A stretch of DNA of 32,000 nucleotides, taken from Candidatus Thorarchaeota archaeon (GTDB lineage Archaea > Asgardarchaeota > Thorarchaeia > Thorarchaeales > Thorarchaeaceae). A program made the position numbers and the translations under genes. Location of the stretch: the NCBI GenBank assembly GCA_008080745.1, contig SHMX01000006.1:1-32000 (forward strand), written 5' to 3'. Below, in pieces: positions 1 through 26,338 of this stretch (positions are counted from its first letter, which is position 1; every line of letters begins with the position of its first letter). The notes under the pieces were generated by a model. The model saw only the letters and a list, made by a program, of their open reading frames with translations. It was not told the origin of the DNA and ran no database searches.

Positions 1-347
1 CTACAAGCCCCACAATCGACTCTCCTACTGATTATTCGTACGAGGCTGGAAGTACCAACAATTGGATCAACTGGACTGTTGGTGATAACTATCCAGATAC
101 ATATGAACTCTACAGAGATGGATCGGTCATAGACTCGGGACCTTGGAATGGTAACAAACTGAATTGTTCCGTTGATGGACTTGACCCTAATGCATACAAT
201 TTCACACTTGTCATCTTTGACTCCAGCGGGAATAGTAATTCTGATGAGGTCTGGATCACCGTAGAAGATACTACAAGCCCCACAATCGACTCTCCTACTG
301 ATTATTCGTACGAGGCTGGAAGTACCAACAATTGGATCAACTGGACT
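1..347 (+). repeat. Exact 77-bp direct repeat (1-77 = 271-347), 270-bp period, inside the Ig-repeat gene
   Basis: ctacaagccc...caactggact is identical at both positions, then diverges abruptly (gttggt vs tgttca). Confidence 0.97.
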
Positions 348-3300
348 TGTTCAGATTTCTATCCGCAAAGGTATGAAATCTATCATAATGGAAGTCTGGT
401 TGATTCAGGTATCTGGAATAATGAATCCATTTCGATAAATGTAGATGGTCTTCAACTGGCGATACATAACTTTACTTTGTTTCTTGAAGACCAATATGAT
501 AATCAGAATACATCATCAACTTGGATTACTGTCATGGACACCATAAATCCGGAAATCAATGATGTCACCGATATGATATACTCAGAAGGAAATCAAAGTG
601 TTTTTGTAGAATGGGTTCCTGTTGATGAAAATCCATTCTATTATAAGATATTTTTGAATAATTCTCTATTGCAATCAGGAATATGGAATACTTCATATGA
701 AGTGATAACACAACAACTAGGTGGATTATCCTACGGATTATACAATACAACCATTATTGTATTTGATGAAGTAAATAACTCCAACAAAGATATGCTATGG
801 ATTCATGTAATTGACACGATTTCTCCCCAATTAGACTCACCAGAAGATATTCTATATCCGGAGGGTGATACTGGATATTCCATTCATTGGACCGCTCAGG
901 ATACAAATCCGTCTGAGTATTACATTCTCTGTAATGATACAGTTTTGCAGGAAGGAACATGGAATGAAACCTATGAAGTTATTTCTATCATTGCTGATGG
1001 TCATCCATATGGATTGTATGAATACAATCTTACCGTAGTTGATATTGATGGAAATTCATTTTCAGACATTGTATTGGTTAATGTCTTTGATGGGAATCTA
1101 CCTACAATACTACCTGTTAGTGATATCTACAAGGGAGAATTAGACGAAACTACGAATTTGACGTGGAATCCGATTGATTTGCATCCTAAGAATTACACTA
1201 TTTTCTTGAATGATACAATCATTCGTCAGGGGAATTGGAATGAAACTACTGAAGAAATCATAGTCAATCTATCAAATCACGAATTAGGATGTTACAATTA
1301 TACTCTTCGAATTTTTGATATTGATGATAACTCAGCTGTATCGGATATTCTTGTCTTTGTCAATGATTTGACAAGTCCGGAAATCAATCACCTTGATTCA
1401 TACCATATGGTTGAAACCACAGAAGGGCATTATATTGAATGGCAAGGTTCAGATTTACATCCGAATAAATACACGATTTTTCTGAATGGAAGTATTGTGA
1501 TAGACCAAGCTTGGAATTCTAGTTCTGAATTATTGAGGTATTCAATAGATACCTTAAGTCGCGGAACTTACAACGTTACAATCATACTAACAGATATTGG
1601 GATGAACAGAGTTAAGGACCAACTATTCATCTATGTAAACGATGAAACTGCTCCAATGATCGAGAAGTCGTCAAATTGCCAGATATCAGAAGGTACAGAA
1701 GGAATAGTGATTTCATGGAATGTATCTGATCTTCATCTTTATACATATAAGTTGTATAGAAATACAACTGTGATTGCGGAAAATTTCTTCAATTCAACCT
1801 ACGAGACCATAACAGTATCACTAAACGGTCTGCAATTGGGAAGATGGAATTTCACACTGCTCTCATATGATTTGGACCTCAATAGCAAAGCTTCTAACAT
1901 TCTTGTTGAAGTCTTTGATGGAACGCCACCTGAAATTTTAGGACCGAATAACCAAAAAGTAGCGATCTCAAGTTTCCCTGCTATCCTATCATGGGAACCC
2001 TATGACTCTCATCCTACTAGTTACCGTATTACAAGGAATCATACCATACTAACCGTAGGTTCATGGACATCAGGAACTAACATTTCAATATCATTGGATA
2101 ACCTTGAGGTAGGTATCTATAACCTAAGTATAATTATCTTTGATATAGGTAATAATGGTGCAGCTCATTCGGTAATTATCACTATCTATGACGATTATAT
2201 TCCAATATTGAATTCACCTGACGATCAAGTCTTCTCAGAAGGAGAGGTACCAGATATTATAACATGGGAGATTTCAGATAATGGACTTAGTCACTATCAA
2301 GTTCTCAAGAATGATTCAATTATAAAATCGGGAGTGCTAGGTGAATTTCAAGACACTGTTACTATCGACCCATCAACATTGGAATCGGGCACCTGGAATC
2401 TAACACTTGTCGTTCATGACCGAAATGGAAATGTAGCGTCCGACTCTGTCATCGTTACAATCACAACATCTGGTGCCTTTACGAATAACGAATTGGTCAA
2501 TCTGATTAATACTCCTATAATAGGAGGATCTTCTATTTTCATCATGTTAGGTATTGCATTACTAACATTGAGAAAGAAGAAGACGAAATCTCAAATACAT
2601 GAATCTAGCACATCAGAATACTCACCAAAGAAACGAGAGATTTTCGTGGATATCAAGAGAGGTGGAGAGTTTACAGGAAACCGATATAAATTCAAGGTCA
2701 AGATTGAGAATAATTCATCAAATGTGATTACCGATGTCAAAGTATCTCTGGCATCATATCCAAAAGATGCATTGACAGCCGAAGGAAAAATGTCGAGAGA
2801 ATATGCAAAGATAGAACGCGGTGGATTCAGAACTCCTACCTTTGAATTTCTCCCGAAGCAAGATTGTGTTCAAGGGAGTATTATTGCAAATGTCACGTAC
2901 ATCGATTCTCATGGAAAACCATATTCTGCAGTTACCGAACCTTTAGAAATACGAGCTGTATGTGACCTCTTACGTCCTGAATCAATCAGCCCTGAAGACT
3001 TCATGTTCAAACTAGCTGGGCTAAACCATGGAGAGATGATGGTTCGGGTAGAAGATTGGACACCAACTGAAATGCTTGAGAAAACTGGAAATATATTGAA
3101 AGATGCTAGTTTCTTCCAAGTTTCAAGTGAGATATCCAATATTGGAGAATATACGGAGGTAAGACTTCAAGGATGGGCAAAAGGAATCTATACGCACAAG
3201 AGTCTCGGAGTGGAAGTGATAATCACTGGCAAAGAAGGTGTCAAAGGGGCAACCTGTGTGATTAAGATGATTGGTGAAGACGATGCTATGATCATGCCAG

Positions 3301-3440
3301 CAATTGATGAGATAGCTAAGAAGATTGGGGCCTGGCTTTGTCCGTATTGCATGGGTAAATTACCTAGCGAAATGGTAAATAAACTCAAAGAAGGTATCAG
3401 TGTTGGCTGTCCATTTTGTGGAGTAACAATTGACTATTGA
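3..3440 (+). CDS. 5'-truncated large single-pass membrane protein: at least 9 extracellular ~90-aa Ig-like repeats, TM helix, cytoplasmic adaptin/COP-appendage-like domain, C-terminal Zn ribbon
   Basis: Frame 3 is open from position 3 (TSPTIDSPTDYSYEAG...) into the 477..3440 ORF, so the TTG at 477 is internal. Repeats follow D-x-x-x-P...W...D-x-x-P...Y-N-x-T-L...D...N, with many N-x-S/T sequons. TM IIGGSSIFIMLGIALLTL followed by RKKK at about 2516-2580. CPYC...CPFC at the C-terminus. Confidence 0.88.
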   Translation, partial: TSPTIDSPTDYSYEAGSTNNWINWTVGDNYPDTYELYRDGSVIDSGPWNGNKLNCSVDGLDPNAYNFTLVIFDSSGNSNSDEVWITVEDTTSPTIDSPTDYSYEAGSTNNWINWTCSDFYPQRYEIYHNGSLVDSGIWNNESISINVDGLQLAIHNFTLFLEDQYDNQNTSSTWITVMDTINPEINDVTDMIYSEGNQSVFVEWVPVDENPFYYKIFLNNSLLQSGIWNTSYEVITQQLGGLSYGLYNTTIIVFDEVNNSNKDMLWIHVIDTISPQLDSPEDILYPEGDTGYSIHWTAQDTNPSEYYILCNDTVLQEGTWNETYEVISIIADGHPYGLYEYNLTVVDIDGNSFSDIVLVNVFDGNLPTILPVSDIYKGELDETTNLTWNPIDLHPKNYTIFLNDTIIRQGNWNETTEEIIVNLSNHELGCYNYTLRIFDIDDNSAVSDILVFVNDLTSPEINHLDSYHMVETTEGHYIEWQGSDLHPNKYTIFLNGSIVIDQAWNSSSELLRYSIDTLSRGTYNVTIILTDIGMNRVKDQLFIYVNDETAPMIEKSSNCQISEGTEGIVISWNVSDLHLYTYKLYRNTTVIAENFFNSTYETITVSLNGLQLGRWNFTLLSYDLDLNSKASNILVEVFDGTPPEILGPNNQKVAISSFPAILSWEPYDSHPTSYRITRNHTILTVGSWTSGTNISISLDNLEVGIYNLSIIIFDIGNNGAAHSVIITIYDDYIPILNSPDDQVFSEGEVPDIITWEISDNGLSHYQVLKNDSIIKSGVLGEFQDTVTIDPSTLESGTWNLTLVVHDRNGNVASDSVIVTITTSGAFTNNELVNLINTPIIGGSSIFIMLGIALLTLRKKKTKSQIHESSTSEYSPKKREIFVDIKRGGEFTGNRYKFKVKIENNSSNVITDVKVSLASYPKDALTAEGKMSREYAKIERGGFRTPTFEFLPKQDCVQGSIIANVTYIDSHGKPYSAVTEPLEIRAVCDLLRPESISPEDFMFKLAGLNHGEMMVRVEDWTPTEMLEKTGNILKDASFFQVSSEISNIGEYTEVRLQGWAKGIYTHKSLGVEVIITGKEGVKGATCVIKMIGEDDAMIMPAIDEIAKKIGAWLCPYCMGKLPSEMVNKLKEGISVGCPFCGVTIDY

Positions 3441-3781: not shown

Positions 3782-6574
3782 ATGAGTGAGAAAAAACAGA
3801 CAAAGAGAATGTCTATGTCAATAGAAGGAATGCATTGTGCGTCCTGTGTAGCTACAATTGAGAAATCATTGAAGGCAAAAGAAGGGGTACTCAGTGCATC
3901 TGTCAGTCTATTAGATGAAAAAGCTATAGTTGAATATGAGTCAGGTAAAGTTGAAAGAGAAGATTTGGAGAAGACTGTTGATTCAACCGGCTATAAAGCT
4001 ATTCGACCTAAGATGAGTCTTACAATAAAGCCAGAACCAATTGGCGAAGAGTGGGAAACCGTAAGAAAAGCACTCTTAGATATTGACGGTATCATTTCAG
4101 TAGAGGGTTTTCCTGAGCATAATCGAGTAATAATAGAATATGATGGAGACCTAATTACTTACAAAATAGTAAAGCGTTCTTTTTATCAGCACGGTTTTGA
4201 AGTATCTGAAGAGTCTGATACACAGGACAGAGAAGCTTCTGCAAGAGAAGAGGAAATAAAATACTATTCACGTCTGTTCACATTCTCACTTATTCTTACA
4301 ATACCCGTAGCCCTCATCATGTTTGGAGTGATTACGCCGTTCATTCCAACAGGAATCTCTCCAGAGATAGTCATGTTTGTCCTAACCACTCCTGTCCAAT
4401 TTATTGGAGGCTATCCTTTCTACAAAGCTAGTTTACGGGGATTAAAACATCTCAAGACAAATATGGACACTCTAATCATGTTGGGAACAAGTGCAGCGTA
4501 CTTCTACTCGGTATTTGCAACCTTCTTTTTGGAGGGTTTTCCTTCATTCTATGATACAGCAGCGATGCTGATCACTTTCATTCTTCTAGGAAGAATGTTG
4601 GAAGCTATCGCCAAAGGTAGAACTTCCAAAGCGATTAGAGAACTTATGGGCTTACAGGCAAAGGTCGCAACCGTAATTAGAGATGGTCAGGAGTCTACGA
4701 TTCCAATTGAGGATGTAGAGGTAGAAGATGTTGTCTTGGTACGCCCCGGTGAGAAAATACCCGTTGACGGAAAAGTGATTCAAGGCCAGTCCTCTGTTGA
4801 CGAGTCTATGATTACAGGAGAATCTTTACCTGTAAAGAAAAAGGTAGGGGATTCTGTTGTGGGTGCAACTATTAACAAGAATGGGGTACTTCACATAAAA
4901 GCAACTGAGGTGGGACAAGACACAGTTCTATCACAGATAGTGAAAATGGTAGAAGAGGCACAGGCAAACAAACCACCGATACAGAGGAAAGCTGACGCTA
5001 TCGCCGAAGTGTTTGTACCTATCGTTCTGATAATATCAGCCGCAACTTTCCTATTCTGGGCATTTCTTACACCGGAACCCTGGGTTAGAGCGCTTAGCTT
5101 CATGATAGCTGTTCTAGTTGCTGCATGTCCCTGTGCGTTGGGGTTGGCAACACCAACTGCAATCATGGTCGGTCTGGGTCAAGGTGCGAAACATGGAGTA
5201 CTGATAAAGACAGGTGGAAGCCTTGAAAGAATTCCTCAGATAGACACAATCATCTTCGATAAGACTGGTACCCTAACAATCGGTAAACCCACTGTTACTG
5301 ACATCATCACCGTAAAAGGAGTTGAGAAGGACGAGAGTCTTCGCCTGATAGCAGCAGTAGAACACAACAGTGAGCATCCCTTAGCTACAGCCATCGTTGA
5401 TTTTGCAAAAGAAAATGAAATCGAATATCCTGATGTCCAGGAGTTTGAGTCGGTTTCTGGAAAGGGCGTTACTGCCATCGTTGAATCAGAGAGAGTCTAT
5501 GTTGGTAGTGAGGATTACTTGGTTGAGCAAGGTATTGACCTTCGTTCTCTTCCGGATCATAGTGATATGCTCCAAGAACAAGGTAAGACTACAATATTTG
5601 CAGGCACACAAAAAGGTGCTTTAGCTATATTGGGTATAGCAGATACGTTGAAGGAATCATCTCCTGATGCAGTAAAGACTCTGAAGGATCAAGGTATCGA
5701 GGTCTGGATGATCACAGGAGACAGGGAAATCACTGCACGTGCTATTGCAAAGAAGATTGGTATTGAAAACATAATGGCACAAGTTCTCCCTCAAGACAAA
5801 GCTGGAAAAGTTGAGGAATTGCAGAAGAGTGGTCGAGTTGTGGCAATGACCGGAGATGGAATTAATGATGCTCCTGCTCTAGCACAAGCAGATGTTGGAA
5901 TTGCTATGGGTTCAGGGACCGACGTATCGGTAGAAACAGGAGATATTGTTTTAGTCAAAGATAACCTGATGGACGTTGTCACTGGTATCCAATTAGGACA
6001 AGCAACAATGAGCAAAATCAAGCAAGGATTCTTCTGGGCATTAATCTATAATATGGCTCTGTTGCCCATTGCAGCGGGCATTCTATTTCCAATTGGAATT
6101 ATGCTCCGACCCGAATTCGCTGGACTTGCAATGGCACTCTCCAGTGTTAGTGTTGTTTCAAATGCATTACTTCTTAATCGATTTGAGCCAAGGATATCCA
6201 AAGTTGGGGTCGTAACTGATTCCAGTGAGGTAGAACCTAAGGTAGCAATTGATCCAATCTGCAAAATGGAAGTAGATATTGACTCAGCAGAACTTTATAG
6301 TGATTATGAAGGCAGGAGATATTACTTCTGTGCACCATACTGTAAACAGACCTTCGATGAGAATCCAGAGAAATATAAAAATCAAGACACTCGAGAGGAA
6401 ACCCCTGAAGTATCAAAGATTGCAGTAGATCCAATCTGTAAAATGGATGTTGACACAGAAACCACGGACCTGTACACGGACTATGAAGGAAAACGTTACT
6501 ACTTCTGTGCACCTTATTGTAAACAGACCTTTGAAGCCAATCCAGAGGAATACAAGAATCAAGATCATAGGTAA
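3782..6574 (+). CDS. copA: Cu(I)-translocating P1B-type ATPase with N-terminal HMA and two C-terminal YHS/TRASH domains
   Basis: [44 protein letters not shown] and MALSS transmembrane motifs; two DPICKM...YYFCAPYC repeats. Confidence 0.95.
6251..6565 (+). repeat. Tandem duplication of the YHS/TRASH domain (177-bp, 59-aa period)
   Basis: gatccaatct at 6251 and 6428; [32 protein letters not shown] vs [32 protein letters not shown]. Confidence 0.9.
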
Positions 6575-6672: not shown

Positions 6673-7578
6673 TTATATTGCTAACACCACCAATATTACT
6701 CCGAAGACAGTAAGTAAAGCACCTAGTAGTGACAAAGCAGTATAGTTTTCTTTTAGTGCAAATATGGAAATTGGTAGTGCAAAGAGGGGGGCAGTTGAGC
6801 CCAATAATGATGCAGTGGCAGCTCCAATTAGCTGAACAGTGTAAGTATAGAGTAGTGAGCCCAGAGTCATCCCCAAGAAGCCCCCAAAAAGGATGATACG
6901 TATTGATTTTTTTCTGGGGATAGGCATACCCCTCTTTCGCGCACCTAAAAATAAGGGTATCATAATTACCGATCCAAACAACATTCTAATGAAATTGGCA
7001 TCTATAGGGTTAACATCAGTGACGCCAATTTGTAGGAAGATGCTTCCCAAAGACCAACAAATAGCTGCTAGCAATGCAAGGGCAATTCCACCCAAGTTGC
7101 TTACAGCTACTTCTAACTCATCTTCTGTTTTTCTTGCACTTGCCCGTGATATCATAATGACACCAATAATCGCGACTACTACTCCAACAAAACGCAACCA
7201 TACTAGCTCTTCACCAACCAAGAAGATGGCAAAAAGATAGGTGGTGATAGGAAAGATGTTTGCGATGGGGAAGGCATATGAAACGCCAATTTTTTCCTGT
7301 GCAATTAGATATACAAGATCACCAACCACAAGTCCAATTGTTACGGAAGCAACCAAATAGAAAATAGATTCAATTGGGATGTAGAAAGGATCAGTTCTAA
7401 ATGGAACAAGTACGATAATACCCATAATCGCACCAGATAACCACATTTTAACTACCGAAATTGCTAGAGGAGTTGCCTCTTCACTCTGTGATTTGTATAC
7501 ATTTGTGGATATACCCCATAGGAAGGCTGTAAAGAGTCCTATGGATACTCCTAAAATCACATCAGTAGATAATTGCAT
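6673..7578 (-). CDS. DMT/EamA family transporter
   Basis: About 10 hydrophobic helices in two similar halves; EKIGVSYAFPI, GAATASLLGSTAPLFA..LKE. Start moved to ATG 7578 (MQLSTD); the ORF-track start is 7620. Confidence 0.85.
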   Translation of the reverse strand: MQLSTDVILGVSIGLFTAFLWGISTNVYKSQSEEATPLAISVVKMWLSGAIMGIIVLVPFRTDPFYIPIESIFYLVASVTIGLVVGDLVYLIAQEKIGVSYAFPIANIFPITTYLFAIFLVGEELVWLRFVGVVVAIIGVIMISRASARKTEDELEVAVSNLGGIALALLAAICWSLGSIFLQIGVTDVNPIDANFIRMLFGSVIMIPLFLGARKRGMPIPRKKSIRIILFGGFLGMTLGSLLYTYTVQLIGAATASLLGSTAPLFALPISIFALKENYTALSLLGALLTVFGVILVVLAI

Positions 7579-7886
7579 GAGAGAGTTCCACCTTTTTCCC
7601 AAAAGATATTTCAGTACCATTAGAGGATATAGTTAGTCTTTAGAAGAATTTGGAATGACATTAATTTCTATCCTAAAATTCTCAAATTATAGAATATTCA
7701 TATCTTTGAACCTGGATAACAATGAAACGATTTATTCTAAAACATATTAAATTTATTCGAAATGATTATAAGGACTTGTAAGAGGGAAAACCCATCATTG
7801 CGTTAACCACCTTGATTTCTGGGATATAATCCCAAATGTATTTCGCATGAACCTCTGCAATGATGGTTTAGGAGGAGAATATTAAC

Positions 7887-11962: not shown

Positions 11963-13156
11963 TTGAAAGATTTAGTCATTGTTGGAGCTGGACCTGCTGG
12001 CAGTGTTTGTGCAATGTCCGCAGCTAAATTAGGTCTAGATGTTCTACTTGTGGATAAAACCCAATTTCCACGATTCAAATCTTGTGGCGGAGCATTGTCA
12101 AAGAGAACAAAGAAAAATTTAGGCCCAAAAGGAATCGATGCAATAAACTGTCAAAGTGAGGGCCTAACTGTTTTCTCTCCTAGCTATCACGAAGCGGATT
12201 ATGAAGAGAGAGACTCGCTTAATCTAGTTGTTCGAACTGAGTGGGATCATGCTGTCTTTCTTGATGCTCAGGATGCGGGTGCTGAAACTTTGGAAAACAC
12301 AATGGTAATCGATATTGAACCAAAAAAGACCTTCATAAGAGTACATCTCCAGGAAAAAGACCCAGTCAAAGCAAAGTATGTTGTTATTGCAGACGGAACC
12401 GGTCTACGTTCTTATAAGAAGAAGTTAGGCTTTACACAACCTTATGAATATATGGCCAGAACAGTCTGTGCTGAGAATCCTGTTGATAACCAAATTCTTG
12501 ATGACCATTTTGACGGAAAACGAAAAATTCAACTCTATTTCGGTGTAGTTCCCAGAGGATACGGGTGGGTATTTCCAAAGAGAGGATATCTCAATGTAGG
12601 AATTGGATTCAGTAATGAAGAAATTCCCGATATTTCTCAATTAGAAGTGTTTGATATATTCCTTGCCACTATGAAGAAAAGAGGTGTAGTTCCAGAAGAA
12701 TTTGATGGAAGTACCCGCAAGACCCACCCGGTTCCATTTAAGAAACCTTTTGATCCAATAGGTATTGGAAATATATTACTTGTCGGTGATGCAGGAGGAT
12801 TTGTTTCTCCTGTCACGGGAGAAGGTTTGTATTATGGCACAACAGCCGGGCGGATTGCAGCCGAAACAATCCATCAAGACATAGAGGGAAAACTAAGTGA
12901 CGACTTAGTTTCTACTTACAAAGAGAGATGGATGGAAGATTTCGGAGATGACCTAATCAACAAGGGTTTGTCCCTAGCAAATCTGGTATACAAATCTGTT
13001 CGCAGGATGGAACTATTAGTCAAGATGATGGCATCAGATGAAGAAACTTGTAAAGCAGCAGCAGAGATGATTATGGGTGCGAAGAGCTATGGAGAAGCTC
13101 GGAGTAAAGTATACCGAAGAGCTCCCATCTCGGTATTGAAATCATTACTCTCCTAA
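11963..13156 (+). CDS. Geranylgeranyl reductase family FAD-dependent oxidoreductase (archaeal lipid DGGGPL reductase-like)
   Basis: VIVGAGPAG, FPRFKSCGG, GYGWVFPK, LLVGDAGGFVSPVTGEGLYYG. Likely TTG start at 11963 after a GGAG RBS. Confidence 0.9.
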   Translation: MKDLVIVGAGPAGSVCAMSAAKLGLDVLLVDKTQFPRFKSCGGALSKRTKKNLGPKGIDAINCQSEGLTVFSPSYHEADYEERDSLNLVVRTEWDHAVFLDAQDAGAETLENTMVIDIEPKKTFIRVHLQEKDPVKAKYVVIADGTGLRSYKKKLGFTQPYEYMARTVCAENPVDNQILDDHFDGKRKIQLYFGVVPRGYGWVFPKRGYLNVGIGFSNEEIPDISQLEVFDIFLATMKKRGVVPEEFDGSTRKTHPVPFKKPFDPIGIGNILLVGDAGGFVSPVTGEGLYYGTTAGRIAAETIHQDIEGKLSDDLVSTYKERWMEDFGDDLINKGLSLANLVYKSVRRMELLVKMMASDEETCKAAAEMIMGAKSYGEARSKVYRRAPISVLKSLLS

Positions 13157-13764
13157 TAGACAGAGAATCCTGTTGATATTTCTTCAAACAAATGAGGATA
13201 CGTTTCTTTGACCGTAGTGAGATCTATCTCTTGAGGGATGAAGTATACTTGGAATTCGCAGTAGTTGTCACCCGCTGCCCTGCATTTGGTTTCACGACTA
13301 AGAATATTGTATTCACTATCTCGGGTGAGCATACTCCATGTTTGAGCTGCCCCCTGATAAGCTCCTGCTGGAAATTGACAGAACTTGTGAGGGAAAGAGA
13401 TATCTCGGCACCATGGTGAGTCATCGTCAGTAAAGGTGTAGAGATGTGCTTCTTTACCGTCAATCTCGATTTCTTCAAGAGTTTGCTCAGTCGGTTTATG
13501 TCCAGAAAACATAATCCAAGCCGCCTCACCATAAGCAGGAATTCTACCTACGTCGGGTTCTAGATGGGCTGAGAGCTCCATCATAAATTCATGACCTAAT
13601 TGAACTCCACCCTCAAAGACCATCTGAAGACTCTTTTCAGGTCCAACTATATCCAGAAGACTCGTCATGAGAAGATCATTGAGTTTTGTAAGCGTCATAG
13701 TGACTACTTTTTCGCTTCCAAATTTTTTCGCTTTTGAGGCTTGAATAATTAACCAATTTTTCAT
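13153..13764 (-). CDS. V4R-domain protein (V4R/Bet3-like fold)
   Basis: FCQFPAGAYQGA...ETKCRAAGDNYCEFQV is the V4R Cys signature; helical N-half (GGVQLGHEFM). Overlaps the GGR stop convergently by 4 bp. Confidence 0.8.
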   Translation of the reverse strand: MKNWLIIQASKAKKFGSEKVVTMTLTKLNDLLMTSLLDIVGPEKSLQMVFEGGVQLGHEFMMELSAHLEPDVGRIPAYGEAAWIMFSGHKPTEQTLEEIEIDGKEAHLYTFTDDDSPWCRDISFPHKFCQFPAGAYQGAAQTWSMLTRDSEYNILSRETKCRAAGDNYCEFQVYFIPQEIDLTTVKETYPHLFEEISTGFSVY

Positions 13765-13765
13765 T

Positions 13766-14209
13766 TTATTCTACCACCGTTTTAACAGATTCCAATCTTT
13801 CTAATTTTACAAGCTGCTCGCAGAGTATCTTTACTCTAATAGCAGGAATGTCCAGTATTTGTGCAAGCTCGGCCACACTTTTTTCTCCATCTGCTAGTGC
13901 AACAATTGTAACTTGAGCGTTATCCAAATCATCCAAAGGAACTTTCGTTTGCTTAGGAACAGGTATATGTCTTCTTTGATATTTCTTTGGAGCAGCCTCG
14001 GCTTCTTGAATTCGTTGAACAATATCCGCAGCACTTGTGGCACGAACATTATATGACTTATCAATAAAAACAGTCACAGCGTGTTCAGGAGAGCCATGAG
14101 TCACTAATACAGGAACTGGATTTCTTTGTGCCCCCTGAATTTTTTCTTCGCTGACTTCTATTGTTTCCGTCTTCTTGCAAATTGGACAAGTGAATTGAAC
14201 AGAGGGCAT
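13766..14209 (-). CDS. Zn-binding (CPIC...H..PEH) domain plus C-terminal winged-helix protein
   Basis: MPSVQFTCPICK start at ATG 14209, 7 bp after the GTPase stop; LADGEKSVAELAQILDIPAIRVKILCEQLVKLERL is wHTH-like. Confidence 0.7.
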   Translation of the reverse strand: MPSVQFTCPICKKTETIEVSEEKIQGAQRNPVPVLVTHGSPEHAVTVFIDKSYNVRATSAADIVQRIQEAEAAPKKYQRRHIPVPKQTKVPLDDLDNAQVTIVALADGEKSVAELAQILDIPAIRVKILCEQLVKLERLESVKTVVE

Positions 14210-14216
14210 ACAATCA

Positions 14217-14774
14217 CTAATCCCGAGAACTCGTAAGAATCTTACTCTTATCATGAGAATATTCATTTTTGGACTTGATAGCTTGAACAATCCAACGTTC
14301 AAGTTCATCGATATTCTCACCTGTCTTTGAACTCACTTTCAACCAAGGCATGTTATAGCGTTTTGATATTTCAGCAATTTCTGAATCTGATATTTCAGCA
14401 TCCAGATCAGATTTATTTGCTACAAGTATTCGCCCCTTTTTCGGGACATGATCGATGAAATTTATCCATTCTTCAATCTCAACTAGAGAACTATAACGAG
14501 CCAAGTCGATGGTTACCAGACAGACCTTAGAGCCTACTGAGAATTCTTCTTGAAAAGACCGAAATCGATCTTGACCTCCAAGATCAAAGGTAACAACCTT
14601 GAATCTGGATCCATCAATTTCATCCTCCAGCTCACAGGTAGATATGTCAAGGCCAACTGTCATGGTAGATTCAGTATAGGTGCTATCTACGAGTCGAGAT
14701 GCAAGACTAGTCTTCCCGACCCCTCCCGAACCTACGAGTAATAGCTTAGTGATATTAGGGGATTTCTCACTCAC
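14217..14774 (-). CDS. Rab-like small GTPase
   Basis: G1 GSGGVGKTS, G2 MTVGLD, G3 FDLGGQDRF, G4 NKSD, G5 SSK. GTG start at 14774 after a GGTGA RBS. No C-terminal prenylation cysteines. Confidence 0.93.
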   Translation of the reverse strand: MSEKSPNITKLLLVGSGGVGKTSLASRLVDSTYTESTMTVGLDISTCELEDEIDGSRFKVVTFDLGGQDRFRSFQEEFSVGSKVCLVTIDLARYSSLVEIEEWINFIDHVPKKGRILVANKSDLDAEISDSEIAEISKRYNMPWLKVSSKTGENIDELERWIVQAIKSKNEYSHDKSKILTSSRD

Positions 14775-15002
14775 GTTGCTCACCAGGTGGTCGCACGAAT
14801 TGCATCCAGATTGCAAACAAACCGCCTATTAGATATATTGATTTTTTATGGGATGAATGAAGATATCACATACTGTTTCTTTTTTTTCCAGACACAAAGA
14901 TGTAAAATTCCAGATATTAAACTAGGAATTTAATTAGAAGTTTTTTGGCTAGATGGTTACGATATACTATGTCACACTTTGAGTATATTAAGTTGTATTA
15001 GT

Positions 15003-16220
15003 CTAAATCATTGTAAGAAGATATTCTTTCATTGCCTGCGACATTTCAACAGAATATTTAGATTCATTTCCAATTTGCAACTCTAATCCAATTCGTTTCA
15101 GAGCATTCTTAATCTCCTCCATCTGGTAATCCTTGGCTTTGAGACCCATCTCTAATGCTCTGAGGATTTCATAACCATACTGTGTCACCCAAAGAGGTTT
15201 CAAATCATAATATTGGTGATAAACTTGAAAATCATCAAAGTCCTGTACTTCCACTGATTTAGCAATCACTAGATTGTTAATCTCTTGATTTCTTCTGTCA
15301 ACTATAAAGGGAACCATAATGACCCCACTCGAAGATTGAAGTCGCTCTATGTCGATATGTCTAGTTGGACCATTGTTCTTTATTTGTTCAACCATGCAGC
15401 TCTCTAAGACTTTCTTCACTTGATTGACCACCTTTCCAAAGTCATACGAATTGGGAATCTTTTGAAGATACGGACGGAGATCTCCATCATATACTCCAAG
15501 ATCACCAAGACCAAAAGCTGTCATCCATTTGTGTTGCATGCTAATCAGAGAAGTTCCTTCAAGTCTTATTCTTTTATTCATCATAGAAAACAAAGCGTTC
15601 CATCCTTTCTTTTCTACAAAATCAACTAGAACCACAGAGGGGTAAAACCAGTCACAATAAAAATCAGCATTTCGAATTGCAGGATGAAATGTAAGAACGC
15701 TATCCGCATGTGCATTTCCCTCTACAGTGAGTTCTGTCAGATTCTCACACCAAACTAGTGGGGTTAAATTTGTACTTAGATGATGACTGGAACGGGTAAA
15801 ATGAAAACTGCGTAACTGATCACATTTCGATAAAGGTTCCAAGTTTAATTCTCGAAGAGCACCATTCCAACGAATCTCTAATCGTTGAAGGTTTCTACAT
15901 TGCGCCAATGGTTGCAAATCTAATTGCTTCAAGCTAGTATTGTAATTTAGTTTGAATTCTATGAGATTTGGACATTCTGCTAAAGGTTGCAAATCTATCT
16001 CTTTCAAGCTCCAGAGATGTGAGATTTCAAGACTCCTCAGATTCTGGCATTGTGGCAATACTCGGAGATCTATCTCTTGCAGTCGTTCTCCATGATTGAT
16101 CTTCACAGAAACAAGACTCTCCTGTTTTCTAAGAAAACTCAAATCAATTTCTGTAATACTGTTGTGACGCGGAATATCAGTTGAAAGATTGAAATGTGTG
16201 ATTTCGGATTCTTGATTCAC
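15003..16220 (-). CDS. Leucine-rich repeat protein (25-aa Cys-containing repeats) with C-terminal helical domain
   Basis: LQEIDLRVLPQCQNLRSLEISHLWS / LKEIDLQPLAECPNLIEFKLNYNTS / LKQLDLQPLAQCRNLQRLEIRWNGA repeats. Confidence 0.88.
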   Translation of the reverse strand: MNQESEITHFNLSTDIPRHNSITEIDLSFLRKQESLVSVKINHGERLQEIDLRVLPQCQNLRSLEISHLWSLKEIDLQPLAECPNLIEFKLNYNTSLKQLDLQPLAQCRNLQRLEIRWNGALRELNLEPLSKCDQLRSFHFTRSSHHLSTNLTPLVWCENLTELTVEGNAHADSVLTFHPAIRNADFYCDWFYPSVVLVDFVEKKGWNALFSMMNKRIRLEGTSLISMQHKWMTAFGLGDLGVYDGDLRPYLQKIPNSYDFGKVVNQVKKVLESCMVEQIKNNGPTRHIDIERLQSSSGVIMVPFIVDRRNQEINNLVIAKSVEVQDFDDFQVYHQYYDLKPLWVTQYGYEILRALEMGLKAKDYQMEEIKNALKRIGLELQIGNESKYSVEMSQAMKEYLLTMI

Positions 16221-21913: not shown

Positions 21914-22696
21914 TCAAATTTTAGATATATGGAATATAATATAGTAACCCAGAAGGATAATCATACCAATTCCGATTAGAACAGGAATCCAAAGACCAGT
22001 CCAAAATGAGAAACCTGTCCAAAATGCAATACTTACAAGAAGACTGCTTGAAACATCAGCATTGATATCTTCAGAAATCCAAATATTCTCTGCCACTAAT
22101 AGATGCATCATTACGGAAGCAATCAGTGCTGTAAGAAACCAACCAGCGTAATTAGAAAGCGGAATCCCATAGTAGGGACCTGGTTCTCCCCAGACCCATA
22201 TATTCAGCACTACCGCTGCTGGATCAAGAATCAAATCAACTATCACAAGTAGTAATGCACTTAGGGGTATTGCGAGAACTGCCTTCTTACTCAATTTGTT
22301 TGCAATTGTTATAGAACCTAATACGAGTGGGGCAAATGCAAAAGAAACACTCCATGGAACAAGGTCAAGAATCTTGAATCCCATCTGGTCTGTGTATTCA
22401 AACGGTCCATAAGGAAAACCTGTGATTATCCCTATAGCTTCTATAATAATGGGAAATATACTGAAAAGTGTAATAATTAGAATTGCGCGAATGGGCGTTG
22501 TCCAACGATACAGGAAGAAATAGGAGGGCAATGCAATAGCTACTATGAAAAGAGCTGATACCCATGTGGCTTGCTCCCCAATGGGTACATTAGCAACTAA
22601 CCAGCTTACAAAGAAGAACACTACGGAAAAGATAGTTATGAATAATTTCTTAGTTCCCTCTACAGGATCTCTGTAGATTGACTTGATGCGTTCCAT
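21914..22696 (-). CDS. cruF: Carotenoid 1,2-hydratase, CruF/DUF422 family (bisanhydrobacterioruberin hydratase-like)
   Basis: IEAIGIITGFPYGPFEYT, DLILDPAAV, WVW..PGPYYGIPLSNYAGW. ATG 22696 overlaps the lyeJ stop (TAATG). Confidence 0.85.
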   Translation of the reverse strand: MERIKSIYRDPVEGTKKLFITIFSVVFFFVSWLVANVPIGEQATWVSALFIVAIALPSYFFLYRWTTPIRAILIITLFSIFPIIIEAIGIITGFPYGPFEYTDQMGFKILDLVPWSVSFAFAPLVLGSITIANKLSKKAVLAIPLSALLLVIVDLILDPAAVVLNIWVWGEPGPYYGIPLSNYAGWFLTALIASVMMHLLVAENIWISEDINADVSSSLLVSIAFWTGFSFWTGLWIPVLIGIGMIILLGYYIIFHISKI

Positions 22697-23565
22697 TAGA
22701 ATACCCCCATGAGTGGTAGACCTACTGCAAAGAATAGAACCATTCCAAAAATTCCTGTATAAATAGGAAAGTACCAATATGATTTCTCTACGCTAACTGA
22801 TGGTTGAATCAACAAGTAGAGTGGAATAAGCGGATATATGAACATCATGAGATTCCATGGAGCATACCATGGTGGATACCAAGGTGCCATGAATGTAAGA
22901 ATTATCGCAAAAAGTAACCAGAAGATAAAACACAATATCAGAGACAGCCTTTTTCCCATAATAACTGCAGTCGTTTTGATGTCGGCTTTGGTATCAGCTT
23001 CTATATCAGGAATTGCTGAAAACAGTTGCATTGCTGAAGTCCAGAAGAAAGCGGCAAGAAGTGGAAGGGGTGGTGGGATAATGGATGTAACTTGATAATA
23101 TGCTAGTAATGCAGGAATAACGTACAGAAAATTAGAAGCAAAATCAAGTATTGGTACAGCTTTGAATCTGAAGGGTTTTACACTATACATTATCGATAAT
23201 GACATCCAGCTAGCAAAAAGCAGAATAGCGGTTATATCGGGCTGGAAAGCCATCAGTACAAAACCATAGATGAATGAGAGTGCAACTAAAGTATAGAGCT
23301 TTAGTTTATCCCTTTCAGCAGCACGATATTCTTTCTCATCTTTCTTAGGATTGAACATATCTGTATCTTTGTCAGAAATGTCATTGACACCATAGAGTAA
23401 AATGTTGGCTGGAATCATGAAGTAGAATAGATGTGCAATAAAGTAAGAATCCATTAACTGACTAATACTGGTGATTCCAATGATGTAGCCAATTAGGTAG
23501 GTACCTCCCAGATACAGCCAGAAACGTATCCGAGAAACTTTGAATGCTAGTCGAAAGATGTTCAT
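22696..23565 (-). CDS. lyeJ: UbiA-family prenyltransferase, lycopene elongase/hydratase-like
   Basis: SRIRFWLYL, LYGVNDISDKDTDMFNPKK, YSVKPFRFK.VPILD..SN.LY, FSAIPDIEAD; lies between crtD and cruF as in haloarchaea. Confidence 0.85.
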   Translation of the reverse strand: MNIFRLAFKVSRIRFWLYLGGTYLIGYIIGITSISQLMDSYFIAHLFYFMIPANILLYGVNDISDKDTDMFNPKKDEKEYRAAERDKLKLYTLVALSFIYGFVLMAFQPDITAILLFASWMSLSIMYSVKPFRFKAVPILDFASNFLYVIPALLAYYQVTSIIPPPLPLLAAFFWTSAMQLFSAIPDIEADTKADIKTTAVIMGKRLSLILCFIFWLLFAIILTFMAPWYPPWYAPWNLMMFIYPLIPLYLLIQPSVSVEKSYWYFPIYTGIFGMVLFFAVGLPLMGVF

Positions 23566-23595
23566 GATAGTGACGTACCTACTTGGAAGGTCTAT

Positions 23596-25065
23596 TTATT
23601 CTTTCATCTCCTCATAAATCAAATCAGCTACAATCTCTGCAGAGATGAGTGCCATTGGTACACCTATCCCTGGGTGTGTGTACTGTCCCACATAGAATAG
23701 GTTGTCTACCTTCTTACTCTTGTGACTTGGTCTAAAGAATGCAGACTGCCAAAATGAGTGTGTAAGTCCTACAGCGGTTCCTCGATAGGCATTATAAGCT
23801 TCGGAAAAATCATCCAGAGTAAACACACGTTGTACTATGATCGAGTCGCGGATATTTGTCTTCAGCACCTTCTCTATGTGATCTACCATTTTATTGAAAT
23901 ATGACTCGCGAATCTCTGGAGTATCCTCAATTCCTGGAGCTAAGGGTACTGTCACAAAGATATTCTCATGATTTGGTGGGGCAACAGAAGAATCCGACTT
24001 TGATGTGCAACACAAGTAGTAAGCAGGTTTGTCAGGCCATTGTGGATTTTCAAATATTTGCTCAAAATGTTCGACCCAATCATGGTCTAGAATTACATTG
24101 TGGTGAGTAAGGTTATCTATGGTCTTATTGAGGCCGACATACATAACATAAGCTGAGGGGGCTATGGTCTTCTTCTCCCAGTATCCTATGTCATAAGTTT
24201 TGTACTTTTCCGGAATATAATTTATTTCAACATGAGGATAATCTGCATTGACTACAACTACGCCAGCCTCCATCTCACCATTATTTGTTATAATTCGATG
24301 TACTCGACCATCAGATATCTGTAAATCAGTTACTTCGGTACCATATTTTATACTACCACCATGCTGTTCTGTCAGGGCAACTAGCCCCTCTACTATCTTA
24401 CCCATACCACCCATCGGATACCAAACACCCAGATTATAGTCGATATGAGAAATCATGGAATAAAGAGCTGGGGTGTTCTTGGGATTGCCTCCCAGAAATA
24501 CGATAGTATATTGTAGGATTTTTTGTACTCGTTCATCATCAAAGTATTTTCGAATGAGTTTATCCATATTTGAGAGAATTGAGAGTTTCCAGCCTGCAGC
24601 CATAAGTTTTGGACTTAGCATAGACCGTAACCCTGAGAGATCTTCATACATGAGACCCTCCATTAGGTAATCGTATTTATCCTGAGCCTGTTTTAGATAG
24701 TCTTCAAATTTTTCAGCACCATTATCTTCAAGTCTATCGAATAATTCCTTATTCTTCTCTAAATCTGCAGAGATATCAATCACTTCATGATCTGGGAAGA
24801 AGAATCGATAAGATGGATCTAATCGTACCAATTCGTAGAAATCACTCACCTTTTTTCCAAAGAGATCAAAATAATGTTCGAATACTTCAGGCATTAAATA
24901 CCATGAAGGTCCCATATCAAATACGAATCCATCTTTTGCCCAAATTCGGGCTCTTCCACCAGGTTCTTGATTTTTCTCAAGAACTGTTACATTATGTCCT
25001 TCTAGGGCTAACAGTGCCGCAGTGGCAAGACCTCCAACTCCAGCGCCAACTATCTTCACATCCAT
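23596..25065 (-). CDS. crtD: Phytoene-desaturase-family enzyme, probable carotenoid 3,4-desaturase
   Basis: IVGAGVGGL, FDMGPSWYLMP, QYTIVFLGG.PKNTPALY, HPGIGVPMALISA; first gene of crtD-lyeJ-cruF. CrtD rather than CrtI is inferred from synteny and motif style. Confidence 0.75.
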   Translation of the reverse strand: MDVKIVGAGVGGLATAALLALEGHNVTVLEKNQEPGGRARIWAKDGFVFDMGPSWYLMPEVFEHYFDLFGKKVSDFYELVRLDPSYRFFFPDHEVIDISADLEKNKELFDRLEDNGAEKFEDYLKQAQDKYDYLMEGLMYEDLSGLRSMLSPKLMAAGWKLSILSNMDKLIRKYFDDERVQKILQYTIVFLGGNPKNTPALYSMISHIDYNLGVWYPMGGMGKIVEGLVALTEQHGGSIKYGTEVTDLQISDGRVHRIITNNGEMEAGVVVVNADYPHVEINYIPEKYKTYDIGYWEKKTIAPSAYVMYVGLNKTIDNLTHHNVILDHDWVEHFEQIFENPQWPDKPAYYLCCTSKSDSSVAPPNHENIFVTVPLAPGIEDTPEIRESYFNKMVDHIEKVLKTNIRDSIIVQRVFTLDDFSEAYNAYRGTAVGLTHSFWQSAFFRPSHKSKKVDNLFYVGQYTHPGIGVPMALISAEIVADLIYEEMKE

Positions 25066-25162
25066 GTTTAAACACACACCTTAACAATCTCTAATAGAAT
25101 CCTTCATCCCTAATAACCTAATTGTTCAAATTCAAAAATTTTATCGGAAAGTTTTAGAAAAC

Positions 25163-25195
25163 CGTCAAATTAGAGAACGATATTCGTCAATATCG
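25163..25195. promoter_or_regulatory. Candidate operator in the divergent crtD/crtB intergenic region
   Basis: Perfect inverted repeat CGATATT-cgtc-AATATCG (25178-25195) at the centre of the region; CGTCAA direct repeat at 25163 and 25185. Confidence 0.4.
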
Positions 25196-25300
25196 AAAGG
25201 GAACTAACCAACTATTTAATAATACGAAAGTTATAAGATTCGCACTATATTAGGAGAAAAAATCAGGGAATAATTCATTATTTGATGGAGGATTCAAATA

Positions 25301-26305
25301 ATGGGGTGTCCAAAAAGGTGTGTGCAAGTGTTTAGTGATTACAAGGCCCATCTCACAGTGCTGCCTTCGCAGATTGAGATAATAGAAGAAATAGAACAAG
25401 ATAATTTAGAACATGCTTATGACTATTCATTGAACCTATTCAAGTTACATGCAAAGTCATTCTACTTCGCATCAAGGTATTTGGAGGAAAAAGAACGAAG
25501 AGCGTTTGCAGCGCTCTATGGATTTTGTAGATTAGCAGACGATTTTGTAGATGAGATAAATCTTGAAATTTCGGAGATAGATAAGGAATTAGACATTCTC
25601 AAAGATATGACATCAGGACTTGCCAAAGGCAAGACATACAATCATCCGTTGTTTCTTGCTTTTGGAGATACCATGATTAGATATAAGATTCCTGTCAGGT
25701 ATTTACATGAACTCATTGAAGGAGTTCGTATGGATGTAAATCTAGATGAAATTAAAACTGAGAAAGAATTGGAGAAATATTGTTATCACGTAGCATCAAC
25801 AGTTGGTCTCATGATGTGTCATATATGGGGAAGTACTCGAAGAGATACATTAGAAAGAGCTGCTGACCTTGGACATGCATTACAGCTTACTAACATCCTC
25901 AGGGATGTTGCTGAAGACTATGATAATGGTAGAATATACATACCTTTGGAAACCAGAGAATTGTTTCGAGTCACAGCTAATGAGTTTGAACTTCGTGAGG
26001 TACGACCTAATTTTCAGAGGTTAATTGAACATGAGATTCATCGAGCAAGAACTCTTTATGCTAGATCTGAAGTTGGTATACCCGATTTACCTCCAGCGGG
26101 ACAATTCACAGTAAAAGTTGCGTCTAGAGTATATGCATCCATTATGTCCGAAATCGAGAAGATGGACTATCAAGTTTTCAAGAAACGTGCAATTGTTCCC
26201 AAATGGAAGAAAATCTGGATAGCTTATCGCGTTCGTTCGGAGTATTTAAGAGAGAAAAAGGCTTACGAGCGAAAAATGGCGGATGGGATTAGACAGATCG
26301 CATAG
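25301..26305 (+). CDS. crtB: Phytoene synthase
   Basis: HAKSFYFAS, YGFCRLADDFVD, YCYHVASTVG, LQLTNILRDVAED..GRIYIP. Confidence 0.93.
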   Translation: MGCPKRCVQVFSDYKAHLTVLPSQIEIIEEIEQDNLEHAYDYSLNLFKLHAKSFYFASRYLEEKERRAFAALYGFCRLADDFVDEINLEISEIDKELDILKDMTSGLAKGKTYNHPLFLAFGDTMIRYKIPVRYLHELIEGVRMDVNLDEIKTEKELEKYCYHVASTVGLMMCHIWGSTRRDTLERAADLGHALQLTNILRDVAEDYDNGRIYIPLETRELFRVTANEFELREVRPNFQRLIEHEIHRARTLYARSEVGIPDLPPAGQFTVKVASRVYASIMSEIEKMDYQVFKKRAIVPKWKKIWIAYRVRSEYLREKKAYERKMADGIRQIA

Positions 26306-26338
26306 AATTTCTATGATTTCTCAGGAGGGAGAAATAGA

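Follow-up and report, generated by a model that had tools for sequence, protein, structure and literature searches.

A predicted adaptin/COPI-type ear and a zinc ribbon form the cytoplasmic tail of a Thorarchaeota surface protein and of many other membrane proteins

Eukaryotic vesicle coats use appendage (ear) domains as interaction hubs, and the origin of these coats and of their coupling to cargo is an open question in eukaryogenesis. In an adaptor large subunit, the ear is carried on a HEAT/alpha-solenoid trunk by a long flexible hinge, within a soluble heterotetramer; the ear serves as an accessory-protein hub, and cargo is selected by the trunk/mu part. The beta-COP appendage (residues 711-953; Pfam families Coatamer_beta_C and Coatomer_b_Cpla) likewise comes after an alpha-solenoid trunk, and its coat is a soluble heptamer. 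According to the paper behind the beta-COP appendage structure, this ear and the cargo adaptor GOLPH3 bind through the extension of a beta sheet in the ear; the beta-COP strand that contacts GOLPH3 is W849-K852. Makarova et al. 2024 (doi 10.1101/2024.02.06.579148) describe eukaryotic ears more generally as hubs that bind short linear motifs. The same study reported archaeal appendage regions composed of an Ig-like and a TBP-like domain, one form of which has a Zn ribbon while another is TM-linked to an outer GOLD domain, and located such regions in ESCRT proteins and loci of archaea, including Asgard ESCRT-I-like proteins. In addition, Asgard homologues of Alpha_adaptinC2 and B2-adapt-app_C have been reported as ears unfused to adaptin trunks (Eme et al. 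2023, PMC10307638).

The gene analyzed here lies at the start of a 32-kb Thorarchaeota sequence (the window). An earlier reading of this sequence, the original prediction, had described at least nine Ig-like repeats, one transmembrane (TM) helix, a cytoplasmic tail, and a zinc ribbon in it, and all of these elements were found in the same place (Table 1); the tail, put at ~270 aa, is slightly longer, with 289 aa after the TM helix. The N-terminus of the protein is missing because the contig begins within the repeat array, in which nt 1-80 and nt 271-351 are 98.8% identical. A tblastn/blastn search for it on the genome's other contigs returned no near-identical piece and only paralogous repeats of at most 48% identity. 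Two DNA sequencing runs from marine sediment may be the origin of this DNA, and no RNA run is listed for it. The repeats are anchored by an [ILV]xW...D motif at residues 22, 112, 202, 294, 386, 478, 570, 662, and 753, and they gave weak Pfam matches above cutoff to K319L-like_PKD (33.5 bits against a cutoff of 27) and ChitinaseA_N (26.4 bits against 21.2). This outer part contains 34 N-x-S/T sequons in 830 aa versus 14.8 +/- 3.3 in shuffled sequences, an excess from which the repeats are probably glycosylated, and the tail contains 3 versus 1.2 +/- 1.0.

Table 1. Features of the ear-tailed gene, in nucleotide positions of the window
Feature	Position	Strand	Description	Basis
ORF	3..3440	+	1145 aa; 5'-open (cut by contig start)	
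Outer (extracellular) part	3..2480	+	Nine ~91-aa Ig/PKD-like repeats, sequon-rich	Translation, W-anchor periodicity, Pfam
Single TM helix	2514..2570	+	Residues 838-856, PIIGGSSIFIMLGIALLTL	Kyte-Doolittle mean 2.06
Juxtamembrane linker	2571..2645	+	Residues 857-881, basic, Ser-rich, starts RKKKTK	Sequence
Ear subdomain 1	2646..2957	+	Residues 882-985, nine-strand Ig-like beta-sandwich	AF2 model
Inter-subdomain linker	2958..2990	+	Near-invariant C-x-L-L-x-P (AVCDLLRPES)	Conservation, model position
Ear subdomain 2	2991..3329	+	Residues 997-1109, alpha/beta platform	AF2 model
C-terminal zinc ribbon	3330..3437	+	Residues 1110-1145, Cys4 with helical insert	Invariant cysteines, model
Stop codon	3438..3440	+		ORF call

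The TM helix is the sole 19-residue window with a Kyte-Doolittle mean above 1.8 in the whole 1145 aa. Basic residues flanking a TM segment mark its cytoplasmic side (the positive-inside rule), and a basic cluster follows this helix directly. Of the features of a type I single-pass protein, the TM helix, the basic cluster on its inner side, and the sequon asymmetry are seen; the N-terminal signal or anchor would lie off the contig. Among full-length relatives, the closest (P0003; 1495 aa, tail 62% identical) has hydrophobic segments at residues 7-25 and 1177-1195. This relative sits on a 4.8-kb contig without neighbours. The tail is predicted with high confidence to be cytoplasmic, as the original prediction had it, since all topology indicators agree: RKKKTK obeys the positive-inside rule, the sequon excess is confined to the N-terminal side of the helix, the four cysteines of the zinc ribbon are invariant, and relatives have a hydrophobic segment near the N-terminus in addition to one TM helix.

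We modeled the tail with AlphaFold2 (AF2) from a 52-sequence alignment, which gave a pLDDT of 93.7 and a pTM of 0.78 and superseded a single-sequence AF2 model with a pLDDT of 57. Confidence was lower in the first residues of the model, on the side of the juxtamembrane linker (mean pLDDT of 83 in the first 10-residue block). In the model, the sandwich strands span residues 5-108, mostly with pLDDT above 90, and are followed by a linker in which C110, L112, L113, and P115 (model numbering) are near-invariant across the 52 sequences. The platform then runs in the order helix-strand-helix-four strands-helix (H120-129, E131-139, H144-157, E161-214, and H217-232), and its motifs G-x-A-x-G-x-Y-T and GED-x-AM are conserved. 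The segments on which the original prediction relied fall where it had assigned them in this model, with FKVKIENN (residue 897) in the sandwich, AVCDLLRPES (residue 985) in the inter-subdomain linker, GWAKGIY (residue 1057) in the platform, and CPYC (1113) and CPFC (1136) in the zinc ribbon. Candidate ligand-site residues conserved in the family include, in model numbering, K21, K23, N26, F70, and D77-C78 as well as G180-x-A182-x-G184-x-Y186-T187, D216, M219, and E226. The ribbon is modeled with pLDDT of 91-95, its cysteines 1113, 1116, 1136, and 1139 are invariant in the 52 sequences, and 21 of the 52 family members match Zn_ribbon_9 (best E value, 1.5e-5). The same ribbon, alone, ends a helical 246-aa protein encoded on C7 that has no predicted TM segment.

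When the tail model was compared with solved structures, every one of the top 16 Foldseek matches in the PDB was an appendage domain of COPI or AP-2. The leading match, 9qpq_H (E value, 2e-10; TM score, 0.69/0.75; rmsd, 3.3 A over 244 columns), has 243 residues, as many as the beta-COP appendage segment, and was taken as the beta-COP ear on that basis, the text of the structure's paper not giving this PDB code. VIA-align returned the alpha-adaptin ear 1w80_A (Z 16.5 over 210 residues), followed by 3h1z_A (Z 14.3) and 1r4x_A (Z 14.0). Matches to a single subdomain scored lower: the best platform-only match was to the beta appendage of AP-4 (2mj7; Z 13.2 and rmsd 2.5 across 113 residues), with unrelated platform-like folds coming next at Z of 9.7 or less, and sandwich-only matches, which include GAE and ear domains at Z 9.6-10.3, reached at most Z 12.2, below 1w80_A, 3h1z_A, 1r4x_A, and 2mj7. 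Among ESM-Atlas models, beta-COP clusters superposed with TM scores of 0.66-0.69 and Thorarchaeota relatives with 0.75-0.88. The predicted structure shows a roughly nine-strand Ig-like sandwich, a platform following it, and superposition of the whole unit on solved ears. We thus confidently predict from the model that the tail folds as an ear of the adaptin/COPI type, closest to that of beta-COP and then to the AP-2 alpha/beta2 and gamma-COP ears, in agreement with the original proposal of a sandwich-plus-platform fold like that of beta-COP.

At the sequence level, the homology to ears that had been claimed did not emerge. Searched against the Pfam families PF02883, PF09066, PF07718, PF14806, PF08752, and PF16381, the tail had no match at E values of 1 or less; hmmscan of the 52 family members against Pfam at E values up to 10 listed 25 families and no ear family among them; and the family profile found no ear chain among PDB sequences at E values up to 10. 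Searches of Pfam, NCBIfam, and the PDB with the tail yielded generic zinc-ribbon matches only, and in an ESM-Atlas feature search the family's own Thorarchaeota cluster alone reached a meaningful score. Hits to beta-arrestin (E value, ~0.85) and to GAE_BBS1 (three members; E value, 0.039) were below threshold and were taken as noise. Because no sequence-level similarity was detected, common descent with eukaryotic ears is argued from predicted structure only.

This lack of a sequence signal would also suit a resemblance of fold without adaptor function, in which the joining of an Ig-like sandwich to a TBP/helix-grip-like domain came about, or was kept, independently. The domain would then have another ligand, either membrane lipids, as for KA1 domains, or some small molecule. 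Each subdomain fold is common, the platform alone resembles KA1 domains (Z 9.0-9.7), and the domain lies near the membrane with lysines K21 and K23 conserved. However, superpositions of both subdomains outrank every match to one of them, the top Foldseek matches are ears exclusively, subdomain order is kept together with the relative orientation in the case of beta-COP, and appendage regions have been independently reported in archaeal sorting proteins (Makarova et al. 2024). We consider a resemblance of this kind rather improbable.

The tail shares with the beta-COP appendage (9qpq chain H) a sandwich followed by a platform in similar orientation, yet the two are only 16% identical in sequence, with no HMM-level match. 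They also differ in context, the Thorarchaeota ear following a TM helix instead of a trunk, and in the extra Cys4 zinc ribbon of the former. The ears of AP-2 alpha/beta2 (1w80, 1b9k, 3h1z, and 1e42) and gamma-COP (1r4x and 1pzd) and the AP-4 beta platform (2mj7) have the same bipartite fold, but whole-domain TM scores to the AP-2 and gamma-COP ears are lower (0.41-0.55, rmsd 5.4-7.4), which suggests a different angle between the subdomains in the model. The GAE and platform domains of the BBSome (BBS9, PDB 6vbu chain 9) are also similar (Z 12.0 over 189 residues), although they score below the adaptin and COPI ears, and BBS proteins have a beta-propeller at the N-terminus and lack a TM segment. 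Unlike an adaptor large subunit, the Thorarchaeota protein has neither adaptin hinge nor trunk: the ear is preceded by the TM helix and a linker of ~25 residues, and the remaining protein consists of extracellular Ig-like repeats. A tether of this length, in place of the long flexible hinge of adaptins, may imply a different mode of action. Describing the protein as "cargo plus adaptor in one chain," as the original prediction did, is an overstatement: of an adaptor, the protein has the ear alone and lacks a HEAT trunk as well as mu and sigma parts.

By architecture description, the tail fits the published archaeal appendage regions, i.e., Ig-like plus TBP-like domains with an optional Zn ribbon or TM-linked outer domain, as represented by WP_013898571.1 and WP_013898578.1. 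Novelty of the fusion is not supported, Zn-ribbon and TM-linked archaeal appendages having already been published (Makarova et al. 2024). What differs is the setting. Earlier reports dealt with methanogen and haloarchaeal proteins of ESCRT neighbourhoods and with soluble Asgard multidomain proteins. A location within or beside an ESCRT (Vps4/ESCRT-III) locus, taken as a mark of the published regions, was not found for the present gene: no ESCRT family was found among the 20 ORFs scanned from nt 3782 to 27841, the upstream side lying beyond the contig end, and no ESCRT or coat-like gene adjoins the ear gene in the 32-kb window. In our literature search, we found no account of a Thorarchaeota family in which hundreds of different membrane proteins share an ear and ribbon as their inner tail.

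The tail belongs to a large family, with at least 433 representative clusters at E values up to 1e-3 and 109 at E values up to 1e-30, far in excess of chance, and its named relatives are Thorarchaeota MAGs. Architectures were counted in 141 representatives with a long match to the tail: TM segments lie upstream of the ear in 103 (~73%), no more than 90 aa away in 67 of those, and the zinc ribbon is kept in 96 of the 141. The heads include PKD/Ig arrays, NosD beta-helices, PQQ and SBBP propellers, and multipass bundles. In a tree of the domain, the ear of the window falls in a clade with 98% support (43 rows) in which single-pass and multipass heads are mixed, and the well-supported branches require at least 13-16 changes of architecture. 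Some relatives have C-terminal extensions of ~150 aa in place of the ribbon, mostly without a Pfam match; the exception is an EAP30/Vps36 (ESCRT-II) domain C-terminal to the ear in one relative (E value, 2.6e-10). Paralogues of the tail within the same genome (E values from 1e-108 to 5e-16) differ from the gene described here in heads and repeat numbers. One of them (C1:540580-548691; 2704 aa) shares its overall architecture of Ig repeats, TM helix, and ear, with a tail 59% identical; the others include a soluble tandem-ear protein with two ear-plus-ribbon modules (C4), a protein with Zn-ribbon repeats and an ear (C3), and a 420-aa protein whose ear has no zinc ribbon (C1:265615). In a genome of the same genus, no orthologue closer than 41% identity was found for the last 446 residues, so this particular gene is poorly conserved. 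We conclude with high confidence that one ear-plus-ribbon tail, in a family centred on Thorarchaeota, is carried by many unrelated membrane heads.

Such a distribution could be read as that of an anchoring foot, with tails binding either to one another or to a lattice of the cytoskeleton or envelope, so as to array giant surface proteins, and with no role as a motif hub or in sorting. Soluble proteins of the same genome with two ear-plus-ribbon modules, the tandem arrays of TM-ear genes in relatives, and heads that resemble adhesion or envelope proteins are all compatible with it. A complex prediction for two copies of ear plus ribbon (score, 0.00) says nothing either way on a homodimer. Nevertheless, multipass and very small heads likewise bear the tail, and eukaryotic ears are not known to act as self-associating lattice units; we regard anchoring as unlikely. 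Relatives have EamA transporter genes within their TM-ear arrays, and the gene studied here is followed by one 3 kb downstream; this proximity was not taken as functional linkage.

The single-pass, receptor-like layout, in which a conserved inner domain is combined with diverse outer domains that resemble sensors, could alternatively be that of a one-component transmembrane signalling system, in which an outside ligand or clustering would alter the accessibility of the ear and recruit a signalling protein such as a small GTPase. Ras/Rab-like GTPases do occur in the genome, one of them in the window at 14217-14816, but this gene is 11 kb from the ear gene and on the opposite strand. Moreover, neither an enzymatic nor a known signalling domain is present in the tail, and lone TM helices relay conformational signals poorly unless dimerised. 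A receptor output domain of this kind seems to us improbable.

The reading toward which we lean, with some confidence, is that the tail serves as a membrane-proximal docking module common to many surface proteins, i.e., a cargo-borne hub rather than a full adaptor. According to this proposal, a type I surface protein would expose glycosylated Ig/PKD-like repeats outside and, past its one TM helix, would hold the ear and zinc ribbon ~25 residues beneath the membrane. There, like eukaryotic ears, the tail would dock cytosolic partners by their short motifs or edge strands. Because the tail is borne by the membrane protein itself, it would offer one common handle for many different surface proteins, by which shared cytoplasmic machinery would sort, position, cluster, or remove them. 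A link to sorting machinery is suggested by the ESCRT-II domain of one relative, by the appendage regions that Makarova et al. 2024 found in ESCRT proteins of archaea, and by the GOLPH3 binding of the beta-COP ear. Candidate partners are the soluble ear proteins, the ESCRT-linked ear proteins, and the small GTPases of the same genomes.

Archaeal ears were already known, and what is added here is their context as a conserved cytoplasmic tail whose outer part is often swapped. A soluble bait of ~270 residues (residues 878-1145) could reveal the binding partners of an archaeal ear, and whether it is by means of this module that surface proteins are sorted or positioned in Asgard archaea. If the tail were to bind nothing specific, an ear-like fold in archaea would be a eukaryotic signature to read more cautiously. 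It is also conceivable, though doubtful, that the Thorarchaeota ear is mainly cargo-borne and recruits a primitive sorting or remodelling machinery, the HEAT-trunk ear of eukaryotes having arisen later by a move from membrane proteins to adaptors. If such an origin were true, the beginnings of adaptor-cargo coupling would become open to experiment.

The ORF at the start of the contig (C6, whose first 32 kb make up the window), in a source genome of 3.16 Mb (completeness 98%), is 5′-open and encodes 1145 residues. Since the contig begins inside a repeat array (nt 1 to 80 are 98.8% identical to nt 271 to 351), we consider the assembly break explained and regard P0002, the version of the same gene in the public protein set (987 aa, TTG start), as a truncation artefact of a longer protein. 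Nine repeats of ~91 aa, with a conserved [ILV]xW...D anchor at residues 22, 112, 202, 294, 386, 478, 570, 662, and 753, fill the first ~826 residues and match the Pfam families K319L-like_PKD and ChitinaseA_N with modest scores above the cutoff. The elements that the original prediction had read in this protein were all present in the sequence. Residues 838 to 856 form the sole strongly hydrophobic 19-residue window, immediately followed by RKKKTK, and 289 residues remain C-terminal of the TM helix. The protein's N-terminus is missing from the contig, so that a signal sequence is not visible. Full-length relatives carry an N-terminal hydrophobic segment and then one TM just ahead of the ear, as in the closest of them, P0003 (1495 aa; segments at 7 to 25 and 1177 to 1195). 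N-x-S/T sequons number 34 in the outer part, compared to 14.8 ± 3.3 in shuffles, and 3 in the tail, compared to 1.2. The positive cluster after the TM, the sequon excess restricted to the N-terminal part, the four invariant ribbon cysteines, and the layout of the relatives agree with each other and strongly predict a cytoplasmic ear, as had been proposed.

An exhaustive phmmer search with the tail returned 433 representative proteins at E ≤ 1e-3, including 109 at E ≤ 1e-30. In an alignment of 52 domain segments of this family, the four cysteines (CxxC...CxxC) are invariant, as are N26, P43, F70, P74, G81, and F160; near-invariance extends to the linker, C-x-L-L-x-P, and to two motifs, G-x-A-x-G and D-x-x-M. 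A single-sequence AlphaFold2 run was poor; the model used rests on the alignment (pLDDT 93.7, pTM 0.78). When this model was compared to the PDB with Foldseek, appendage domains occupied all top 16 ranks, led by 9qpq_H (E 2e-10; TM 0.69 on the query and 0.75 on the target; rmsd 3.3 Å; 16% identity over 244 columns) and followed by the AP-2 alpha, AP-2 beta2, and gamma-COP ears. We take 9qpq_H to be beta-COP from its length of 243 residues, which matches the appendage segment (711-953) in the model-building section of the paper that describes the COPI-GOLPH3 leaf's structure and whose text lacks the PDB code. VIA-align, a structure comparison independent of Foldseek, retrieved the alpha-adaptin ear (1w80_A; Z 16.5, 210 aligned residues), an AP-2 adaptor chain (3h1z_A; Z 14.3, 206), the gamma-COP ear (1r4x_A; Z 14.0, 213), the AP-4 beta platform alone (2mj7; Z 13.2, 113), and BBS9 (6vbu_9; Z 12.0, 189), along with generic Ig-like sandwiches (Z ≤ 12.2, about 90-110) and KA1-like platforms (Z ≤ 9.7, about 90) from various chains. 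Models in the ESM-Atlas, which come from another predictor, gave concordant results, with TM of 0.75-0.88 for Thorarchaeota clusters and 0.66-0.69 for eukaryotic beta-COP clusters. At the sequence level, the tail alone had no significant match in Pfam, NCBIfam, or PDB sequences, the 52 family members had no ear family among the Pfam families listed at E ≤ 10, and the family profile matched no ear chain among PDB sequences. The ear fold and its specific likeness to beta-COP, both named in the original prediction, are thus supported where predicted structures are compared but not at the sequence level (Pfam and the PDB profile search). That the tail resembles ears in fold only and binds another ligand, such as a lipid, seems quite unlikely to us.

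Positions of ear-bearing genes, tail segments, and neighboring genes (C1 to C7, contigs of the window's genome; unprefixed nucleotide positions, window)
Feature	Position	Remarks
Window's protein	ORF 3..3440 (+)	ear-bearing
2704-aa paralogue	C1	same architecture as window's protein; tail 59% identical
Soluble tandem-ear protein	C4	
CxxC-rich repeat protein, then ear	C3	
420-aa protein	C1	ear without ribbon
Ear fragment, 83 aa	C1:550726-550974 (+)	platform end and ribbon; 2 kb downstream of 2704-aa paralogue
246-aa helical protein	C7:47366-48103 (-)	no predicted TM; same helix-containing Cys4 ribbon alone at its end
Beta-sandwich	model residues 5-108	nine strands, then short linker (AlphaFold2)
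Platform	model residues 120-232	helix-strand-helix-four-strand-helix (AlphaFold2)
Zinc ribbon	model residues 233-268	small, with helical insert (AlphaFold2)
P1B-type (CopA-like) metal ATPase	3782-6574 (+)	directly 3′ of ear-tailed gene; N-terminal HMA domain, two C-terminal YHS domains
EamA-family transporter	6673-7620 (-)	3 kb downstream of ear-tailed gene
Minus-strand gene run	13153-16220 (-)	V4R-domain protein, DUF742 protein, Ras/Rab-like small GTPase, leucine-rich-repeat protein
Ras/Rab-like small GTPase	14217-14816 (-)	Ras match E 1.6e-26
Carotenoid gene cluster	21914-27841	Caroten_synth protein, UbiA prenyltransferase, two phytoene-desaturase-like amine oxidases, phytoene/squalene synthase

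The window's genome holds six full ears spread over five proteins, plus one fragment. Elsewhere in the window, the carotenoid gene set resembles a C50 (bacterioruberin-type) pathway, which is unusual in an Asgard MAG. When 300 other genomes sampled within the same phylum were surveyed with the ear profile (genomes matched/scored), it matched 72/76 in family f1, to which the window's genome belongs, 63/68 in f9 (E-values mostly much weaker), 5/5 in f16, and 6/7 in f24; f5 (0/28), f12 (0/19), and f22 (0/21) had no match. Where a relative's record gives an organism name, it is that of a Candidatus Thorarchaeota or Promethearchaeota MAG; three records are labeled "uncultured archaeon" only. Relatives' loci (L009-L014) contain conserved arrays of three to five small TM-ear genes. 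An EamA transporter gene and genes for proteins with a hydrophobic segment at both ends lie within these arrays, and PRC-barrel genes and a helicase gene border them. The presence of EamA near ear genes, here and in relatives, may reflect linkage or coincidence. The same-genus genome encodes nothing closely orthologous to the window's gene (best match, 41% identical across the final 446 residues), which fits a fast turnover that ear-tailed surface proteins appear to undergo between close relatives.

Among the 141 representatives whose domain match was long, TM segments were predicted upstream of the ear in 103 (none in 38), at most 90 residues from it in 67 of the 103, and the ribbon was kept in 96 of the 141. 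Their heads are mutually unrelated and include PKD/Ig arrays, a NosD-type beta-helix, propellers of the PQQ and SBBP kinds, and small multipass bundles that match no Pfam family. In a FastTree of ear domains (n = 143), the window's ear grouped with P0003, P0004, and one further relative, all four single-pass (96% support), within a clade of 43 (98% support). Of these proteins, 19 are multipass or small, 14 are single-pass, 5 have an N-terminal anchor only, and 5 appear soluble. Even if only well-supported branches are counted, the architecture class must have changed at least 13-16 times, which means that many heads have been recombined with one conserved tail. We judge it quite unlikely that the tail is a receptor output domain. 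In relative P0119, an EAP30/Vps36 (ESCRT-II) domain replaces the ribbon after the ear (residues 590-780; E 2.6e-10, above the Pfam cutoff), and about 25 other representatives carry an unannotated helical extension of ~150 aa at that position.

In real adaptors, the trunk, mu, and sigma parts select cargo and bind the membrane. Only the ear is present here, and "cargo plus adaptor in one chain" therefore overstated the case; the fold and topology of that interpretation hold, and its adaptor function stays putative. In eukaryotes, ears act as hubs on which short motifs dock. This role is summarized in Makarova et al. 2024 (10.1101/2024.02.06.579148), and the ear of beta-COP binds GOLPH3, a cargo adaptor, through the extension of a beta sheet in the ear (COPI-GOLPH3 leaf structure paper). 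The ear in archaea is not new as such: Alpha_adaptinC2 and B2-adapt-app_C homologues unfused to adaptin trunks are on record in Asgard archaea (Eme et al. 2023, PMC10307638), as the original prediction had stated, and Makarova et al. described archaeal Ig-like plus TBP-like appendage regions, one with a Zn ribbon, one TM-linked to a GOLD domain in an ESCRT locus of a methanogen, and others in Asgard ESCRT-I-like proteins. Our full-text literature search found no description of a Thorarchaeota family with ear and ribbon as a general membrane-protein tail.

Architecture, fold, cytoplasmic position, and the behavior of the family are observed or strongly predicted; as to function, we infer a role from architecture and analogy. 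An ear ~25 residues below the membrane might be a self-associating or anchoring foot, which we consider unlikely. Given its conservation on many different surface proteins, the simplest reading is a common handle, towards which we lean slightly. Sorting machinery is a likely class of partner, based on the EAP30/Vps36 domain of P0119 and the archaeal ESCRT appendage regions of Makarova et al. Through this handle, a shared set of cytosolic partners would recognize, sort, position, or remove surface proteins.
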